From positions 230,055 through 294,054 of the forward strand of contig CBDCWP010000038.1 of the NCBI GenBank assembly GCA_965223505.1: a stretch of DNA of 64,000 bases, given 5' to 3'. The position numbers and the translations under genes are program-made. The stretch comes from Planctomycetota bacterium. GTDB taxonomy: Bacteria; Planctomycetota; PLA2; JAEUHO01. Below the pieces are notes generated by a model. The model was not told the origin of the DNA. It ran no database searches and was given only the letters and a program-made list of their open reading frames with translations. Position 1 is the stretch's first letter; each line of letters opens with the position of its first letter. This document shows, in pieces, positions 18,112 to 59,795 of the stretch.

Positions 18112-19659
18112 CTACTTGTCCTTGCGCTTGCGAACGGCCCCGCTCTCGCTCCGAAGGTCTTCGAGCTCGACGACGTGCGCCGTGACCATCACCAATCGGT
18201 CGATCTTGCGGTCCTCGACGTCGCTTCGCGCCGTGCGGATGAGCACCGTGCCGCCGGTCGGCAGCGTGGATGTCGTCTTCGAACGAAGCACGGAGAGTTC
18301 GGGAACCTGGATCTTCACCTTGTGCCCTTCGATCTCCGTCTCGAGCTCCGGGATCGGACGTCGAAGCTCGGCCCAGGTGCAATTCGCGTCGAGGGTCACG
18401 TACCGCTCGTCCGCGCTCAGCGTCGGCTCGAGCTCCACGACGACGCCCTCTTGAATGGTGTCGATGACCGGGTCGAGGGCCGTCTTGCCGTCCCTGCCTT
18501 CGACGACCGTGTACTCCTTCACGTACGAGATCTGCGAGAGCACCTGCACGTTCGCCGTCTGCTTGTCGTAGGCCGTGAGGCGCGGCGCCGTCAGCAGCTT
18601 CAGCCGCTCACTCTTCTCGACGGCGCGCAAGAGGACCTCGCACTGCGTGTCGTCGAGAAACGTGGTGTTGCTCGGCTCGTCCTGCTCGTCGCGAATGCTG
18701 ATGTCCTCGAGAAAGTTCTCGTACGCCTCGATCACGCGCACCTCGAAGTTGACGACGCGCTTCTTCTCGGACACGGCACGAGGCTCGGTGAACGACCGGC
18801 GATCGAGCTGCGTCACGGCCGCGGTGACCATCACCAGGTGCTCGGTCGAGCCGCCGGACCGGCCGAAGAGCTCCTCGGCGCGAACGAGCACGGTTCCGCC
18901 GTCGGGTACGTTCAGCTCGGCGTTCAACCGCCCGACCCGGATCGTCGGCAGCTGGATTTCGACCTCCTTGTCCCCGGCGACCTTCACGGGAATCGCCGGG
19001 ATCGGGCGCTCGACCTGGGCCCACGTGCCGTCGATGTCGAGCGTCACGAAGCGCCGGTCGGCGCTGAGCGTCGGCGTGACGCCGAGCAGGGCGCCCTCCT
19101 TGACCGTCTCGACGATGGGATCGGCCACACGGCTGCCGCCCATCGTGACCTCGACCTCGTAGTCGCTGACGAACGACACGTCGTTCAGGGTGCTGATGTC
19201 CGCCCGCTGGCGGTCGTACGCGGTGACGCGCGGCGCCGTGATGAGCTTCCAGCGCTCGCCCTTCTCGCAGGCACGCAGCAGGATCTCGACCTGGGTCTCA
19301 TCGAGCAGCATGCTCGCCGCCTTCAGGTCGTTCCCGAATCGACCCGGCAGCCCCAGATCGCGGAAGGCGACGTCGTCCGCCTCGATCAGGCGAACGGTCA
19401 TCGTCACGACGCTGCCGGACGCGCCGGCTTTCGGCTCGCGCGCCAGCTTCTGCAGCGCCTTGCACACCTGCATCAGCGTCTTCGTGTCGGCGCTCTCGAG
19501 AAAGGTCGTGGCCGCGGCCTGTTCGGCGTCGCTGCCGTGCAGGATGTGCCGCGCGATCTGTTCCGGCGACGGCGGCTCGGTATCGACCGCCGGGTCGCCG
19601 GCGAGCGACGGGGTGCAGAGCAGGAGAACGGCGAGGAGCGCAAGGGGGATGTGTTTCAT
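18112..19659 (-). CDS. Secretin-like protein with two tandem secretin-type domains
   Basis: Signal peptide; two copies of VRxIE...LxTAPRxTAYDxQ...EGx(4)xPTLSADxRxVTL...PxGGTVL. Confidence 0.75.
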   Translation of the reverse strand: MKHIPLALLAVLLLCTPSLAGDPAVDTEPPSPEQIARHILHGSDAEQAAATTFLESADTKTLMQVCKALQKLAREPKAGASGSVVTMTVRLIEADDVAFRDLGLPGRFGNDLKAASMLLDETQVEILLRACEKGERWKLITAPRVTAYDRQRADISTLNDVSFVSDYEVEVTMGGSRVADPIVETVKEGALLGVTPTLSADRRFVTLDIDGTWAQVERPIPAIPVKVAGDKEVEIQLPTIRVGRLNAELNVPDGGTVLVRAEELFGRSGGSTEHLVMVTAAVTQLDRRSFTEPRAVSEKKRVVNFEVRVIEAYENFLEDISIRDEQDEPSNTTFLDDTQCEVLLRAVEKSERLKLLTAPRLTAYDKQTANVQVLSQISYVKEYTVVEGRDGKTALDPVIDTIQEGVVVELEPTLSADERYVTLDANCTWAELRRPIPELETEIEGHKVKIQVPELSVLRSKTTSTLPTGGTVLIRTARSDVEDRKIDRLVMVTAHVVELEDLRSESGAVRKRKDK

Positions 19660-19715
19660 GCGCACAGGTTGAGCGCGCGCCGTCACTTCGCGCTCACTCG
19701 GCCGTCACATGCGAG

Positions 19716-29764: not shown

Positions 29765-30937
29765 CTACTTGCCGGACTTCTTGCGCGCCTCCGCAATCTC
29801 CTGATAGCGCATGTTGCGCTCTTCGATCAGACGATTCGCGTTCTCACGCCAGAACTTGGACCACGGCTTCACGTCGTCGCCCAGGTCCGTACCCACGATG
29901 CCCTTCACCGCACCCTGGTACGCTGCTCGCTCGATCGTCGTGAACGTCTGGACCGTCGCCAGCACCTTCACCGACTGCACGACACCTTCCTGAATGACAC
30001 CCACGATCGGATCCGCGATGAACGACGTCTGCGCGACCTCGACATCGAAGTCCTGGATGTACGAAAGCTGCGCGGCGCTCATGAAGTAGACCTGCGGGAA
30101 GTCGCCCGAGCGGCCTTCCCACTTCTTGATCACGTAGCCCAGACCCAGCTCGTCACCGAGCTTGCCGAGCGCCTCGGCTGCGTTCACACGCACCTCGACG
30201 TAGCGGCTGTCGAGCGCGCGGCCCAACGGGTGGACCGTGGACGGCTCGCCGATCTCCTTGAGCGCGCCGACGACGGCGTCCCGCACGTCGTCTTCCTTGT
30301 CGTAGATCGCGCGCTTGAGCAACGCGGGCACCGCCAGCGGATCGTCGAGACGACCGAGTTCCTGCGCACAGTAGATGCGCAGCGACGCCGGCTCGCAGCG
30401 CAGGCACTTGGCAAGCGGCTGCAACTTGAACCGGTCTTCCTCGAGCGCCATCTGACGACGGGCCTTGGCGACCGTCTCCTCGTCCTCGGAAGCGATCTTC
30501 GCGAGCAAGGTGAATACGCGCTTCTCGCCCGCCTTCTGCTCGGCGGCCTCGCGCTGCGGACGCGTCGCCTCGGCGAACTGCTCCGACGTGATCCAGTCTC
30601 CGCCGTGGTGGATGAAGCCCTTGGCGCGCATCAGGTCGTCGCCGGCGTGCCAGCGTTCGTTGATCTTCTCGTAGCCGAGCGCACGCCGCGCGGCGACGTG
30701 ATCCGGCTCGATGCCGATCACGATCTCGTACGCCTTGGCCGCGAGATCGTCATGCCCCTTGGCTTCGAGCTGAAGCGCCAGCTTGAACGCCGCTGCGGCG
30801 TCCTTGGCGTCGAGGGAATCCAGGCGCTTCTCCCAGGCCGTGCGGTCTTCGTCGCCCGCGGCGGCGCCGCTGACGGGCAGCAGCAGGAACGCCGCCACGG
30901 CCAGCATCACGCCCCCGATAAGTAGCCCATGTCGCAT
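29765..30937 (-). CDS. Secreted HEAT-repeat protein with a secretin-like hairpin insert
   Basis: Signal peptide, HEAT repeats, and QLSYIQDFDVEVAQTSFIADPIVGVIQEG near the C-terminus. Confidence 0.8.
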   Translation of the reverse strand: MRHGLLIGGVMLAVAAFLLLPVSGAAAGDEDRTAWEKRLDSLDAKDAAAAFKLALQLEAKGHDDLAAKAYEIVIGIEPDHVAARRALGYEKINERWHAGDDLMRAKGFIHHGGDWITSEQFAEATRPQREAAEQKAGEKRVFTLLAKIASEDEETVAKARRQMALEEDRFKLQPLAKCLRCEPASLRIYCAQELGRLDDPLAVPALLKRAIYDKEDDVRDAVVGALKEIGEPSTVHPLGRALDSRYVEVRVNAAEALGKLGDELGLGYVIKKWEGRSGDFPQVYFMSAAQLSYIQDFDVEVAQTSFIADPIVGVIQEGVVQSVKVLATVQTFTTIERAAYQGAVKGIVGTDLGDDVKPWSKFWRENANRLIEERNMRYQEIAEARKKSGK

Positions 30938-30979
30938 CTGTTCGGTCTCCACGTGCGGGTGGGTTTCGTCCCTCATCCA

Positions 30980-55655: not shown

Positions 55656-58349
55656 CTAGCGCGGCAGCGCTCTCTCGAGCTCCTGGACGAACTCGAGATG
55701 GATGTCCAGGCGTCCGGTCGTCAGCCCCCATCCGCCGTCCACCATCACGAACCGCTTGCCGTCGCGCGTGACGTCGTAGTTCGCCCGGTCGTTGAAGCCG
55801 TCGACGAACTGACCCTCGAACAGTTTCTTGGGCTGTCCGGTGGGCTGCCCGTCTTCCGAGATCCGGACGACGAAGAGAGCCGGCCCATGGCGAAAGAAGA
55901 GCTCACGGCCGTCCTTGGACCAGACCGGCTCGTCGCCGCCTCCGTCCGACACCGCCTCCTTGGGCCCCAACGGATCGTACCGACGCACGTACACCTTCGG
56001 GCGTCCGGTCTCGTCTGACACGTACGCAATCCACTTTCGTTCAGGCGAAAGGACCGCTGCTTGATCGGAAGCGACGGTCTTGATGACTTCCCGGATCTCT
56101 TCGGTCTCCAGGTTGAGTTCCAGAACGTCGAAACCACGACCCGGCGCGACCTCGTGAAAGAGCACACGGTCTTCGGACCACTCGAGAGGCATTTGCATGC
56201 TGGGACGAGAAAGCAGCTCGCGCGGCTCCGACCCGATCGGCTGCATGATCCACAGGTTGCGCCGCGCGAACGATGTGAAGATCAATGCGTCGCCCGTCGA
56301 GGACCATACCGGCTGGACGAAGTTGCCTCCGCTCGTGATCTTCGTCGGACGGTTCAGCCCATCCTGAAACGTGATGGTCCAGATGTCGTGCCTCGCCATC
56401 TCGGTGTGATTCGCAAAGACGACTTTGGGCTCCGTCGGTGACAGGCGTGGGTACTCGTACCCCATGCCCTCGTGCAACGGTTCTTGATTGCCTTCGCGAT
56501 CGAGCCAGACGAGGCTCTTGCCGGGAGACGGGGGGCGGGCCGGTTCGTACACCAACACTCCGGCCGCAGAGAACGCGATGTTGGGATTGCCCAAGTCCGA
56601 GACCTGGATCCCCGTCACGACGCGTTTCGGATCTCCAGTCGTCGTCGCGGACGCGATGTCGACCCTCACGGCCCACAGCTCGTTCCCGCGCAGGTACACC
56701 AGGAAGCCGGTGGTCTTGGCGTCGGTCGAGGGCAGATACGTCGCGTTGGACCCCTGCACGGGGAGCGGGGTCGCCTCCCCGGAGTCCAAATCGAGAATGC
56801 GCGGCTGGAACCGCCCCCGCATGAACGCCGTGAAGAGCACGGCCTTGCCGCCGGGCAGGACCTGAGGCCACCGATGGTCGCGCTCGTGCTCACTGAGATG
56901 TGTGAGTCGGGTGCGTTCCTCGCCGATCGAACGCGTGAAGAAGAGGCCCTCGTCCTGGAGCGCGAACACGATCATGTCGTTTTCGCCCCAGCTGACCCCT
57001 CTGACGGTCTGCGCCGTATGGGAGATCGGGCGAACGGACCCGTCGGCCAACGTGATCTGGAACAAATCGACGCCGCCGTGCCGCGTAAAGGCGACGCGCT
57101 TGCCGTCGGGAGCGAAGAAGGGACTTGCCGCGCCGTCGGTCCCTTCGAGCGGTCGAACTTCGCGGTCGGGGGCGGTACGCAAGTAGAGGCGTCGCTCCCC
57201 GTCCGGGTTGCGGGCGGCGAAAACGACGCTTTGACCGTTCGGCGAGATGGCCAGCGGCGGCGACAGGCCGCTGGGCGTACCGAGATAGAGGGTCCGCGGC
57301 GGAGACGGCAGTGCGATCGAATAGCGTCGGATGTGCGGCCGCGGGTCGTCGACGGGCGCCGCTCTCGGCGCCACGGCCCATCCGATGGCCGCGCCGACCA
57401 CGGCCGTCAGGAGCAGCCCGACCAGCAGGTTCACCGGCGAGCGCTTCGTCTTCGGCGCGGTCTGCTGCTCGCCGGTGCGCCCCGCGAGTACGTCTTCGAG
57501 GACGACGCGGGCGTCGCCGATGTCCCGCAGGCGCTGCCGCGGATCCTTGCGCAGGCACCGTTCGATCAGTCGCCGAACCGGCGCCGGCGCCGCGCGAAGC
57601 CGCTCGACGTCCACGGATTCCGTCGCGATCGCGGCGAAGAGCGAACCGAGCGAGTCCGCATCGAAAGCGCGCTTTCCGGACAGGCACTCGTAGAGCACGC
57701 AGCCGAACGCCCAGATGTCGGCACGCCGGTCGATCGGCTTGCCCCCCACCTGTTCCGGGGCCATGTAGGTCGGCGTGCCGATCAACCGGCCGTCGTCCAT
57801 GGTGAGCGCGCTCTCGGGATCCGAACCGAGCAAGCTCGCCTCCGTCGGCTTCGCCAGCCCGAAGTCGAGGAGCTTGGCCACGCCCTCGGCCGTGACCCGT
57901 ACGTTCGCGGGCTTGAGATCGCGATGGACGACGCCGGCCTCGTGCGCCGCTTCGAGTCCCTCCGCGATGTCGCGGCCGATCCGTAGCGCGTCTTCAAGCG
58001 GCAGGGGCCCGCGCGCGAGTCGGTCCTCGAGTGACTCGCCCGGCACGAGCTCGAGTGACAGGAAGTGGGTGTCGTCGATGTGATCGACGGCGTAGATCTG
58101 CGCGATGTTGGAGTTGTTCAAAGCGGCGAGCGACTTCGCCTCGCGCTGGAAGCGCCCGAGCCGTTCCGGATTCGCGGCGAGGTCACGCGGCAGCACCTTG
58201 ATCGCCACCTCGCGTTCGAGGGTCGAGTCACGCGCGCGGTAGACCTGTCCCATAGCGCCCGCGCCGAGCGGTTCGAGAATCTCGTAGATGCCGAGGCGGC
58301 TCCCCGAGGTGAGCTCGTCGTTCTCCTGGGTGATGACGTTCCCCCCCAA
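55656..58349 (-). CDS. Hanks-type Ser/Thr protein kinase with TM and TolB-like beta-propeller
   Basis: LGAGAMGQVY, VAIK, HRDLKPAN, DFG, GTPTYMAPE; TM; PD40-like repeats (ISPNG, FAPDGK, WSKDG); start uncertain. Confidence 0.92.
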   Translation of the reverse strand: MGGNVITQENDELTSGSRLGIYEILEPLGAGAMGQVYRARDSTLEREVAIKVLPRDLAANPERLGRFQREAKSLAALNNSNIAQIYAVDHIDDTHFLSLELVPGESLEDRLARGPLPLEDALRIGRDIAEGLEAAHEAGVVHRDLKPANVRVTAEGVAKLLDFGLAKPTEASLLGSDPESALTMDDGRLIGTPTYMAPEQVGGKPIDRRADIWAFGCVLYECLSGKRAFDADSLGSLFAAIATESVDVERLRAAPAPVRRLIERCLRKDPRQRLRDIGDARVVLEDVLAGRTGEQQTAPKTKRSPVNLLVGLLLTAVVGAAIGWAVAPRAAPVDDPRPHIRRYSIALPSPPRTLYLGTPSGLSPPLAISPNGQSVVFAARNPDGERRLYLRTAPDREVRPLEGTDGAASPFFAPDGKRVAFTRHGGVDLFQITLADGSVRPISHTAQTVRGVSWGENDMIVFALQDEGLFFTRSIGEERTRLTHLSEHERDHRWPQVLPGGKAVLFTAFMRGRFQPRILDLDSGEATPLPVQGSNATYLPSTDAKTTGFLVYLRGNELWAVRVDIASATTTGDPKRVVTGIQVSDLGNPNIAFSAAGVLVYEPARPPSPGKSLVWLDREGNQEPLHEGMGYEYPRLSPTEPKVVFANHTEMARHDIWTITFQDGLNRPTKITSGGNFVQPVWSSTGDALIFTSFARRNLWIMQPIGSEPRELLSRPSMQMPLEWSEDRVLFHEVAPGRGFDVLELNLETEEIREVIKTVASDQAAVLSPERKWIAYVSDETGRPKVYVRRYDPLGPKEAVSDGGGDEPVWSKDGRELFFRHGPALFVVRISEDGQPTGQPKKLFEGQFVDGFNDRANYDVTRDGKRFVMVDGGWGLTTGRLDIHLEFVQELERALPR

Positions 58350-58427: not shown

Positions 58428-59795
58428 TCAGCGCCGCTCGCGGCCGACCGCCGGCGGATGCCCCAAGTCCCCGCTCGACTTCGGATCGAGCTTCGGCGGG
58501 ATGCGCCACGTGTCCTCGCCGTCACGCCAGGGGTCGTGCGGCCCGCGCGCTTCGCGCTCGACCTCCGACAGCGGTTCCGCACAACACGGCTGCAACGGCG
58601 GCCGCTGCTTCTCGAGCGGCTTGTCGTCCGAGAGCGTCGTCAGGCCGCGTGCCGGCCGCGGTGTCACGATCCGCGCCCGCACCAACACCAGGAGCTCGGT
58701 ATCGATGCACTCCGAGTCCCGCGCCGACAGGAGCGCGTCGACCAGGGACAAGCCCTCGAGGCGCGGCAGGCCGCGACGGTTGCGTGTGTTGCGCCGCAGG
58801 TGCAGTCCGCCGATCAACAGCGGCTCCCGGTCTCTGACCGTCACACGCGTCGTCACCTGCCGGCTGCGCAGGTTGAGCTGCGAGACGGGCGCGTTCGGCT
58901 CCTCCGACGGCTCGGCGATGCGGAACCACAGGTCGAGATCCAGGACGGCATGGTCGTCGGCGACCCGAACGGGCGTGACCCGCAGGCGCACGCCGACCTC
59001 GCGGGTCGACGTCAGATCGATCGTCGGGTTCCCGTTGCTCACACGCACCTGGGGCTGCGGAAGCGACTCGGTGGCCGACATCTCGGCCGGCCGCCCCTCG
59101 ACGCACATCAGGTTCGGCCAGCCGAGGAAGTGGGCTTCCCCGCGCTTCGAGAGCATGCGCAGCGTCCATTCCCACGATCCGCCGAGGGTGTTGTCGTCGC
59201 CGAAGGTCAGGGTGGTGCCCTCGAAGGGCCGCACGCCCGTCACCGTCGACGCGAGATACGCGTCCGGATCGAAGTCGAGCGCGGTGCCGCGATAGAGCGT
59301 GCTGCCCGGGTTCGCCACGCCGTCCTTGTCGTAGAGCAGGTTGGCACCGCTGCCCTTGCTCTTGTGGGCGCTCACCTCCGACAAGAGAACCGACACGGAC
59401 ACCCCGCGTGTCGGCGCATCGAAACGCGCGAGCACGTTGCGCGCCTCCGCCAGCTGCGGGCGCGGTCCGGCGAGAAGGATGCGGCTATGGACCGGCGCGC
59501 CCGGCTTCTGCCGCGGCCCCGTCGGCAGCGGAACGACGCGCGGCAGCACCAGCTGCGCGGTCAGCACGCCTTGTTCGTACCCCTTCCTCCCCTTCATCCA
59601 GTCGTCGAGCTCGGCGAGCAGCTCGGACGCGGGCCGAAACTCGGGCTGAAAGATGTGCCGCACACGGTTCTCGCCCTCGAAGGCGGTGCGCGTCGGTGGG
59701 TGCCACTTCGGCGGAGGCCGCTTGGGCTCGTCGGCGTCCGCGTTCGGCGCGAGCAGCGCGACGAGGAGAGCGGAACACCGGAAAACGCTATGCAA
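58428..59795 (-). CDS. Short secretin (type II/III secretion outer-membrane) family protein
   Basis: Signal peptide, one N-domain-like segment (RILLAGPRPQLAEARNVLARFDAP), VSVLLSEV, EVGVRLRVTP, VTVRDREPLLIGGL, TELLVLVRARIV. Confidence 0.78.
   Translation of the reverse strand: MHSVFRCSALLVALLAPNADADEPKRPPPKWHPPTRTAFEGENRVRHIFQPEFRPASELLAELDDWMKGRKGYEQGVLTAQLVLPRVVPLPTGPRQKPGAPVHSRILLAGPRPQLAEARNVLARFDAPTRGVSVSVLLSEVSAHKSKGSGANLLYDKDGVANPGSTLYRGTALDFDPDAYLASTVTGVRPFEGTTLTFGDDNTLGGSWEWTLRMLSKRGEAHFLGWPNLMCVEGRPAEMSATESLPQPQVRVSNGNPTIDLTSTREVGVRLRVTPVRVADDHAVLDLDLWFRIAEPSEEPNAPVSQLNLRSRQVTTRVTVRDREPLLIGGLHLRRNTRNRRGLPRLEGLSLVDALLSARDSECIDTELLVLVRARIVTPRPARGLTTLSDDKPLEKQRPPLQPCCAEPLSEVEREARGPHDPWRDGEDTWRIPPKLDPKSSGDLGHPPAVGRERR

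Follow-up and report, generated by a model that had tools for sequence, protein, structure and literature searches.

Known pilotins and accessory proteins of secretins include the tetratricopeptide repeat (TPR) lipoproteins PilF/PilW/Tgl and TadD, as well as GspS/AspS. The known pilotins are lipoproteins and bind the C-terminal S domain or the outer surface of the secretin. To our knowledge, neither a pilotin with a secretin-derived hairpin nor a HEAT solenoid carrying one is known, and a literature search for secretins together with HEAT repeats found nothing relevant. Here we report such a hairpin in a HEAT-repeat protein of a Planctomycetota bacterium (here called HEAT-A). Its gene lies in a 64,000-nucleotide stretch of genomic DNA (GenBank assembly GCA_965223505.1, contig CBDCWP010000038.1, positions 230,055 to 294,054), and this whole stretch is called the window below. 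The 29-residue hairpin motif, QLSYIQDFDVEVAQTSFIADPIVGVIQEG, is homologous to a hairpin of secretins, and it varies from lineage to lineage together with the gate of one particular secretin encoded in the same genome.

The f1 pIV structure report (PMC8563730) describes Gate 1 as projecting from the inner barrel, with conserved hinges at Gly267 and Gly297 bounding it and a disordered tip (residues 275–289). HEAT-A shows the same succession of inner-barrel strand, Gate 1 hairpin and inner-barrel strand as the secretins f1 pIV, GspD, PilQ, InvG and RcpA, with homology that covers the motif and extends about 15 residues to either side of it. The second hinge glycine of pIV has its counterpart in the Gly that ends the HEAT motif. 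The first hinge is Gly in pIV, Asn in the cognate secretins and Ala in HEAT-A. The gate sequence itself (S-Y-I-x-D-F-D-V-E-V-A-Q ...) is specific to a TPR-secretin subfamily of Planctomycetota. HEAT-A is nevertheless not a secretin. It has this one hairpin only, and a full PF00263 domain, the outer barrel, the lip, Gate 2 and the C-terminal strands with the GGL / P-L-G-x-I-P region are not present. It is a HEAT-repeat protein, with tandem helical pairs recognized by both family model and fold. Its residues 139–290 form a typical short-HEAT solenoid of the kind seen in PBS-lyase-type HEAT/alphaRep scaffolds (PF13646, PF03130).

In the open reading frame (ORF) of HEAT-A, GC content varied over the three codon positions as it does in real genes of this GC-rich genome, with a value of 0.86 at third positions (GC3). 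No public run was listed as holding RNA from this stretch. Pfam HEAT_2, HEAT and HEAT_PBS matches fell within residues 186–276, and HEAT_2 (residues 186–271) scored 46.6 bits against a cut-off of 27.7 (E = 4e-12). The 3D structure was modeled using AlphaFold 2 (AF2) with an alignment of 101 sequences, which were 100 of the 150 listed family matches (50 under 240 residues were dropped) plus the window protein. The model had a predicted local distance difference test (pLDDT) score of 90.2 and was almost all-helical. Two long strands, residues 295–312 and 321–337, form one β-hairpin, and beyond it there are two helices only before the C-terminus. The only other strands are four of three residues each, at residues 103–129, indicating that an earlier note on this DNA was essentially right in describing a β segment in an otherwise all-α protein. 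A Foldseek search of the model against the PDB returned only HEAT/alphaRep matches (top alphaRep, E = 6e-6) and was uninformative on the hairpin. Likewise, the HEAT-family profile matched mostly HEAT and TPR proteins among PDB sequences. At the N-terminus, a crude script, which is not a signal-peptide predictor, found an uncharged 17-residue run, and a crude pattern found no lipobox-like motif in the first 50 residues. From the model, residues 1–39 may be a signal peptide or a membrane anchor without a lipobox.

The HEAT family (101 sequences) was compared with the TPR-secretin family (40 sequences) using hhalign. The probability was 99.4% with an E value of 2.4e-21 over 59 columns, aligning HEAT residues 293–351 with secretin residues 785–844 and ending at HEAT residue 351. 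The earlier note had matched the hairpin by eye to two peptides of a tandem secretin-like protein in the window (19093-19179 and 18445-18534, minus strand), which are distant versions of the motif. All three peptides it quoted are encoded exactly at their positions on the minus strand, and the plus strand at these sites gives unrelated peptides. The alignment by eye was real. BLASTP of the HEAT protein against the tandem protein gave 35% identity over 48 residues (304–349 with 170–217, E = 1e-4) and 39% over 33 residues for its second repeat (E = 6e-4), and the alignment reached about 20 residues past the peptide quoted earlier. A chance resemblance between hairpin and secretin was ruled out by these E values together with that of the profile–profile comparison. 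The note had named a non-significant profile–profile similarity as a refutation of its proposal, and the similarity proved highly significant.

The own genome (44 contigs, 5.15 Mb) was searched with the C-terminal 135 residues of the HEAT protein. Apart from HEAT-A itself, the best matches were true secretins and two paralogues, on contigs C41 and C36, that share its architecture. The secretins included a 955-residue TPR-secretin on contig C44 (62% identity, E = 1.3e-12), an RHS-repeat/secretin fusion on contig C5 (65% identity, E = 2.7e-11), and a second TPR-secretin on C44. The 955-residue secretin and HEAT-A were identical at 27 of the 29 motif residues (the A pair), and their flanks were unrelated. 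The B pair of the same genome was identical at 22 of the 29. These cognate TPR-secretins lie on a contig other than that of the window, and they, rather than the tandem secretin-like protein with its 35–39% identity, are the closest relatives; on this point the earlier note, as written, was not supported. Eight full-length PF00263 domains were found in the genome, and only three of them bear the special gate sequence. The PF00263 profile did not match the HEAT protein, either as a whole (E ≤ 0.1) or in its C-terminal 135 residues (E ≤ 10). The HEAT hairpin is a homologous copy of the secretin Gate 1 hairpin together with both flanking inner-barrel strands. A fragment or mis-assembly of a secretin gene was ruled out, because HEAT-A has an intact ORF, and 12 close orthologues keep it both in sequence and in synteny.

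To place the motif within the secretin fold, known structures were used. A phmmer search with the C44 secretin domain against PDB sequences gave f1 pIV (7ofh) as the best match, in one alignment over the whole domain. The secretin stretch N-QLSYIQDF...IIQD-G aligned with pIV G267...G297. In the alignment with RcpA (8odn), the terminal Gly of the motif fell on the same conserved Gly, which precedes the next strand. A secretin family profile also aligned the motif start to pIV; the stretch alone was not significant. The AF2 monomer model of secretin A was poor (pLDDT 65.6, gate residues 795–819 below 50) and supports the flanking strands only, with the motif (795–823) between strands 788–794 and 822–832. 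A low-confidence motif between two strands fits a gate protruding between inner-barrel strands. These results suggested that the motif is the equivalent of Gate 1. The gate-type hairpin proposed in the earlier note was thereby upheld, as the motif of this secretin, which is almost that of HEAT-A, falls between G267 and G297 of pIV.

The C-terminal 135 residues of HEAT-A were run as an HMMER query against all 1.84 billion representatives. This gave 713 related clusters at E ≤ 1e-3, of which 126 reached E ≤ 1e-10 and seven reached E ≤ 1e-30. The matches spanned residues 1–115 of the query, and most family members are 270–450 residues long with the module at the C-terminus. Among the 101 aligned sequences, HEAT_2 was present in 96, TPR Pfam families in 5 and PF00263 in 2. 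The hairpin motif was the most conserved region. P323 was invariant, and Q303, D309, D311, V312, E313, A315, D322 and G331 were each conserved in at least 90% of the sequences, so the motif is conserved among relatives, a lack of which the earlier note had named as its other refuting condition. A pattern search of GTDB species genomes gave 594 matches, and 552 of them encode relatives. Of the best 78 of these loci, 76 were labelled planctomycetes (Planctomycetota or subgroups) and two only 'bacterium'. The architecture marks a large family without a name, which is nearly confined to Planctomycetota among the sequences found. Most members are probably exported by the Sec pathway, since their N-termini look like signal peptides; the crude script found an uncharged run of at least 12 residues in 65 of the 101 and a lipobox-like motif in 10. 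Source records held no name for HEAT-A or three relatives, and the ESM Atlas clusters were labelled 'hypothetical protein' from Planctomycetota. Neither the family nor the TPR-secretins of Planctomycetota were found described in a literature search that was thin on subscription journals. In some relatives, two or three HEAT-hairpin paralogues stand in tandem (G001:C4:22381-24313, G014:C7:1591442-1592689 and G015:C17:14354-15480). The middle paralogue of the G001 tandem (L001) bears a TGA codon.

Co-variation of the HEAT hairpin with secretin gates was analyzed first within the order of the host. All 25 genomes searched in this order had matches. A typical genome of the order has a secretin A of about 950 residues, a secretin B of 1000–1100 residues located 11–14 kb from A, and HEAT-size frames of two kinds. 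The test started from 60 hairpin regions of 12 genomes; the motif script found no motif in five. Fifty-three hairpins, 49 from fetched loci and four from the own genome, were classed as HEAT-A, HEAT-B, secretin-A or secretin-B, with extra paralogues and unread loci left aside. Cognate pairs were compared for A in 13 genomes and for B in 11 genomes. The A pairs were identical at 26.1 of 29 residues within a genome and at 24.2 between genomes. For the B pairs, the corresponding values were 23.5 and 18.9 of 29. In one family, both A proteins contained ...AQTSFIADP... and both B proteins ...AQASNIANP..., whereas both B proteins of the sister family contained ...AQAAAIGDP.... Some variants were private to a single genome and present in both partners, such as AQSAAIGDP in the B pair of G020, and K at position 1 with AQAANIANP in the B pair of G006. 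The A pairs of G016 and G020 shared TA, and those of G017 and G018 shared TS.

A second test was made across families and without classes. It covered 11 genomes from 11 families with 28 further regions; the motif script found nothing in one, and two long frames were assigned to the HEAT type by the sequence after the hairpin. For 10.0 of the 15 HEAT hairpins, the closest of the 21 secretin hairpins was in the same genome. When genome labels were shuffled, the mean was 1.38 and the maximum 8.5, and none of 5000 shuffles reached the observed value. The pair of G047 was identical at all 29 residues, including an unusual G-R-I-E-E-G, and at 21 of 29 codons. AQFQAVADPQ was common to both proteins of the G028 pair, and D-F-D-P-E-I to both of the G041 pair. 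The excess of cognate identity was confined to motif positions 2–28, with peaks at the tip (15–17) and the descending strand (22–27), and was nil in the hairpin flanks. As judged from these sequences, each HEAT paralogue (A and B) keeps a hairpin that is the same as, or near to, the gate of its own secretin. This lineage-wise co-variation points to functional coupling of the HEAT hairpin with one particular secretin.

The phyletic pattern was analyzed in a sample spread evenly over the phylum, consisting of 61 genomes that were at least 85% complete, the own genome included. Matches at E ≤ 1e-7 were found in 21 genomes. Twelve had both HEAT-size and secretin-size frames, nine had secretin-size frames only, and none had HEAT-size frames only; frame size was a proxy here, with sequences read for nine of the 12 genomes with both types and none of the nine with secretin-size frames only.

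The most likely reading, to which we give slightly better than even confidence, is that the HEAT protein directly engages its cognate secretin, either during assembly or at the finished gate. The HEAT protein would be located in the periplasm, where its gate copy would engage the secretin. The contacts used would be those that gate hairpins make with the neighbouring gate and the inner-barrel strands in the ring, and a free gate copy could take the place of a neighbouring gate. The protein may help assembly as a chaperone, by capping protomers that have not yet joined a ring, or it may belong to the finished ring as an accessory or plug subunit at its periplasmic gate. In either role, further partners could dock on the HEAT solenoid. 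For a Gate 1 copy, the simplest partner would be the secretin itself, because Gate 1 hairpins in solved secretins touch mainly adjacent gates and the inner barrel, according to the pIV report (PMC8563730).

Several points weigh against this reading. The A and B classes were assigned by the analyst, partly from the motif itself, and genomes of one order are not independent; the cross-family test was made without classes for these reasons. In that test, five of the 15 HEAT hairpins matched best outside their own genome. Two of these were the HEAT loci L153 (G056) and L168 (G076), for which the test set lacked the secretin hairpin that is the likely partner; the motif script found nothing in the partner locus of G076 (L167), and the set contained one secretin-type locus only for G056. 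The local posterior support of the alignments used for the Gate 1 assignment was moderate. The HEAT genes are unlinked to secretin genes, and close orthologues stand among housekeeping genes. No separate secretin domain was found in any of the 78 related loci within the flanks examined, and the four alignments of at least 110 residues at these loci were all inside the HEAT genes themselves. The earlier note had proposed that the HEAT protein may dock into or mimic a secretin ring. This proposal is partly supported. The co-variation points to functional coupling, and both the physical contact and the choice between the two roles are inferred.

A further point is that the codon identity of some pairs was far above the background of about 0.7, namely in G020 (27/29), G016 (25/29) and G028 (25/26). 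This indicated that gene conversion contributes to at least part of the matching, and it probably occurs in these three lineages. The matching as a whole could then be a by-product of conversion, in which an old secretin-derived hairpin with a job unrelated to secretins was homogenized as the only sufficiently similar DNA. The identical stretch does stop abruptly at the edge of similarity, as homology-limited tracts would. However, the mean synonymous-codon identity was equal within and between genomes (0.732 and 0.718 for A pairs, 0.695 and 0.682 for B pairs), which argues against general recent conversion, and the G047 pair was identical in all its residues despite eight synonymous differences. 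In the G006 B pair, two lineage-specific residues are common to both partners, but three positions between them differ, as do six more elsewhere (nine in total). Such an interrupted pattern does not fit a single conversion tract. Moreover, gene-type-specific residues persist in the A pairs over most genomes of one family (E versus D at position 28, V versus I at position 25), and conservation within the HEAT family is highest in the hairpin. Fixation of such conversions in two paralogue pairs and in many lineages would itself require selection. We therefore consider a by-product of conversion unlikely, and infer that selection acts on the hairpin matching, and that conversion may be one way in which it arises. 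Co-variation shows a common constraint and not contact, so the gate and the HEAT hairpin may instead bind the same co-evolving ligand, such as the transported fibre or substrate, a factor in assembly, or an invader targeting the gate, with the HEAT protein acting as a receptor, sensor or decoy. Unlinked genes fit such a looser relationship. Yet the gene neighbourhoods offered no candidate, and the known contacts of Gate 1 hairpins are mainly with neighbouring gates and the inner barrel, making a shared third partner quite unlikely. It is also conceivable that HEAT-hairpin proteins oligomerize through their hairpins into a periplasmic β-barrel or iris of their own, without secretins. The hairpin stems from a ring-forming element, and barrels are formed by multimers of elements like this hairpin of 2 × 17 residues. 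A self-contained ring would, however, leave unexplained why the hairpin tracks one secretin gate of the same genome, and HEAT-size frames never occurred without secretin-size frames in the 21 matching genomes. We regard it as very improbable.

The positions of the features of HEAT-A and of two other genes in the window are listed in the table.

Table. Features in the window, with positions counted from its first nucleotide.
Feature	Position	Strand	Basis and remarks
HEAT-A gene, 403 residues; probably exported TPR/HEAT protein with a C-terminal gate-hairpin module	29765..30976	-	ORF, GC3, Pfam, AF2, 713 clusters
N-terminal region, residues 1-39	30860..30976	-	Hydrophobic helix 13-31, low pLDDT
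TPR-like helices and two small β-hairpins, residues 43-137	30566..30850	-	AF2, weak MamA/TPR-type NCBIfam match
HEAT-repeat solenoid, residues 139-290	30107..30562	-	Pfam HEAT_2/HEAT/HEAT_PBS, Foldseek alphaRep/HEAT
Long β-hairpin, residues 295-337	29966..30094	-	AF2 strands 295-312/321-337, hhalign
29-residue motif, residues 303-331, putative Gate 1 equivalent	29984..30070	-	Translation, pIV alignment; holds the co-varying positions
Two C-terminal helices, residues 347-361 and 369-401	29774..29938	-	HEAT-family-specific; G362 and W372 nearly invariant
Tandem secretin-like protein, 524 residues	18112..19686	-	Two truncated PF00263 matches, profile 2-118 of 169
All-HEAT protein, 714 residues	15959..18103	+	HEAT_2 E 1e-71; hairpin motif not present

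HEAT-A is flanked by ATP-binding cassette (ABC) transporter genes. A divergent cyclophilin gene (peptidyl-prolyl isomerase, PPIase) is nearby, followed by IspF, IspD and RuvC. The 12 closest orthologous loci retain parts of this housekeeping synteny. Cyclophilin was present in nine of them. The synteny is kept by none of the 66 more distant loci. The two TPR-secretins on C44 of the own genome (L079:11346-14213, minus strand, 955 residues; L080:5136-7901, minus strand, 921 residues) are about 14 kb apart, and matches in secretin-size frames, spaced by 11–14 kb on a single contig, were a recurrent feature of most related genomes. Secretin A adjoins a sulfatase gene, ExbB and three ExbD genes, and secretin B adjoins TPR proteins. 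The cognate secretins are 'orphans', too. Their TPR-secretin domain is 60–90% identical in 120 listed relatives, which are named only 'hypothetical' or 'GspD'.

Relatives of the tandem secretin-like protein were found at E ≤ 1e-25 in 16 of 17 genomes, mostly in secretin-size frames. Frames of comparable size spanning most of the protein were present in only a few of the 17. Its gene is convergent with that of the 714-residue all-HEAT protein, and the two are 8 bases apart. Adjacency of an all-HEAT and a secretin-like gene was seen in one other genome (G003:C1:107818-110841). An all-HEAT homologue at E ≤ 1e-40 was found in three of the 17 genomes, with many candidates left unscored. The secretin-like gene is located about 10–12 kb from HEAT-A in G001 and G003, as in the window.

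Other secretin-like sequences of the own genome were also recorded. The fusion on C5 (C5:74-6019, minus strand; L083) has 1981 residues, in which RHS repeats and DUF6531 are fused to a full C-terminal secretin domain with the gate motif. One to several truncated secretin-like repeats with a distant motif were present at C6:754-4686, C44:190939-191820, C31:112132, C2:13466 and window 18112-19686. Those on C6 are apparently in frameshifted or overlapping frames. A canonical secretin of 455 residues with a full PF00263 domain and without the special gate motif is encoded at window 58428-59795 (minus strand). It adjoins an 897-residue serine/threonine kinase with PD40 repeats (window 55656-58349, minus strand).

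In a third class of HEAT-hairpin paralogues, the hairpin-tip codon itself (Q of V-E-V-A-Q-T) is an in-frame TGA. Six loci of this class were read, C41:3562-3888 of the own genome (minus strand; L082) and L001, L003, L005, L054 and L118 of relatives. The codon was always TGA, and the conserved frame continued beyond it in all six. Two more search matches in G021, each with one TGA, are candidates. One family member (P0050) has Cys at the TGA position. The own genome contains tRNA-Sec, SelA, SelB and SelD, and SelB was above the cut-off in all five other TGA-bearing genomes. These findings suggested that the TGA at the hairpin tip probably encodes selenocysteine. An Rfam search for a selenocysteine insertion sequence (SECIS) at the TGA paralogues found nothing relevant. 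RNAalifold analysis of the six TGA sequences gave no more than an apical stem, which starts 12 nt past the UGA and had no covariation support (term +0.67). Part of a similar stem also occurs in paralogues lacking TGA, where it follows from the coding of the peptide A-D-P-x-x-G. If the residue is selenocysteine, these paralogues would be a candidate selenoprotein family without an obvious redox-enzyme context. SelD itself is a selenoprotein in many bacteria. The SelD match of the own genome (C8:38315-39232, plus strand) also has one in-frame TGA.

By analogy, HEAT-A would act like a pilotin or accessory protein. The proposed likeness is that of an exported helical-repeat protein dedicated to one secretin. 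A difference is that pilotins carry a lipoprotein signal, whereas the crude pattern found no lipobox in HEAT-A and a lipobox-like motif in only 10 of its 101 relatives. The element that distinguishes HEAT-A from pilotins is the gate copy itself. Going further, the HEAT-hairpin proteins could represent a new class of secretin subunit. Such a HEAT adaptor would insert its hairpin among or against the Gate 1 hairpins, making the gate heteromeric and externally controlled, with a matched adaptor for each secretin and, in the third class, a selenocysteine or cysteine serving as a redox-sensitive latch at the pore centre. This extension is tentative, and we hold it to be rather doubtful.

If HEAT-A does engage its cognate secretin, secretins would have a partner of a new kind, a protein family that has the gate hairpin alone and keeps it matched to a single secretin. 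Nature would then also offer an example of recognition in which one protein copies part of its target. The co-variation predicts that swapping the hairpin tip would abolish binding and that a matching change in the secretin would restore it. The family may also offer a handle on the unstudied TPR-secretins of Planctomycetota.

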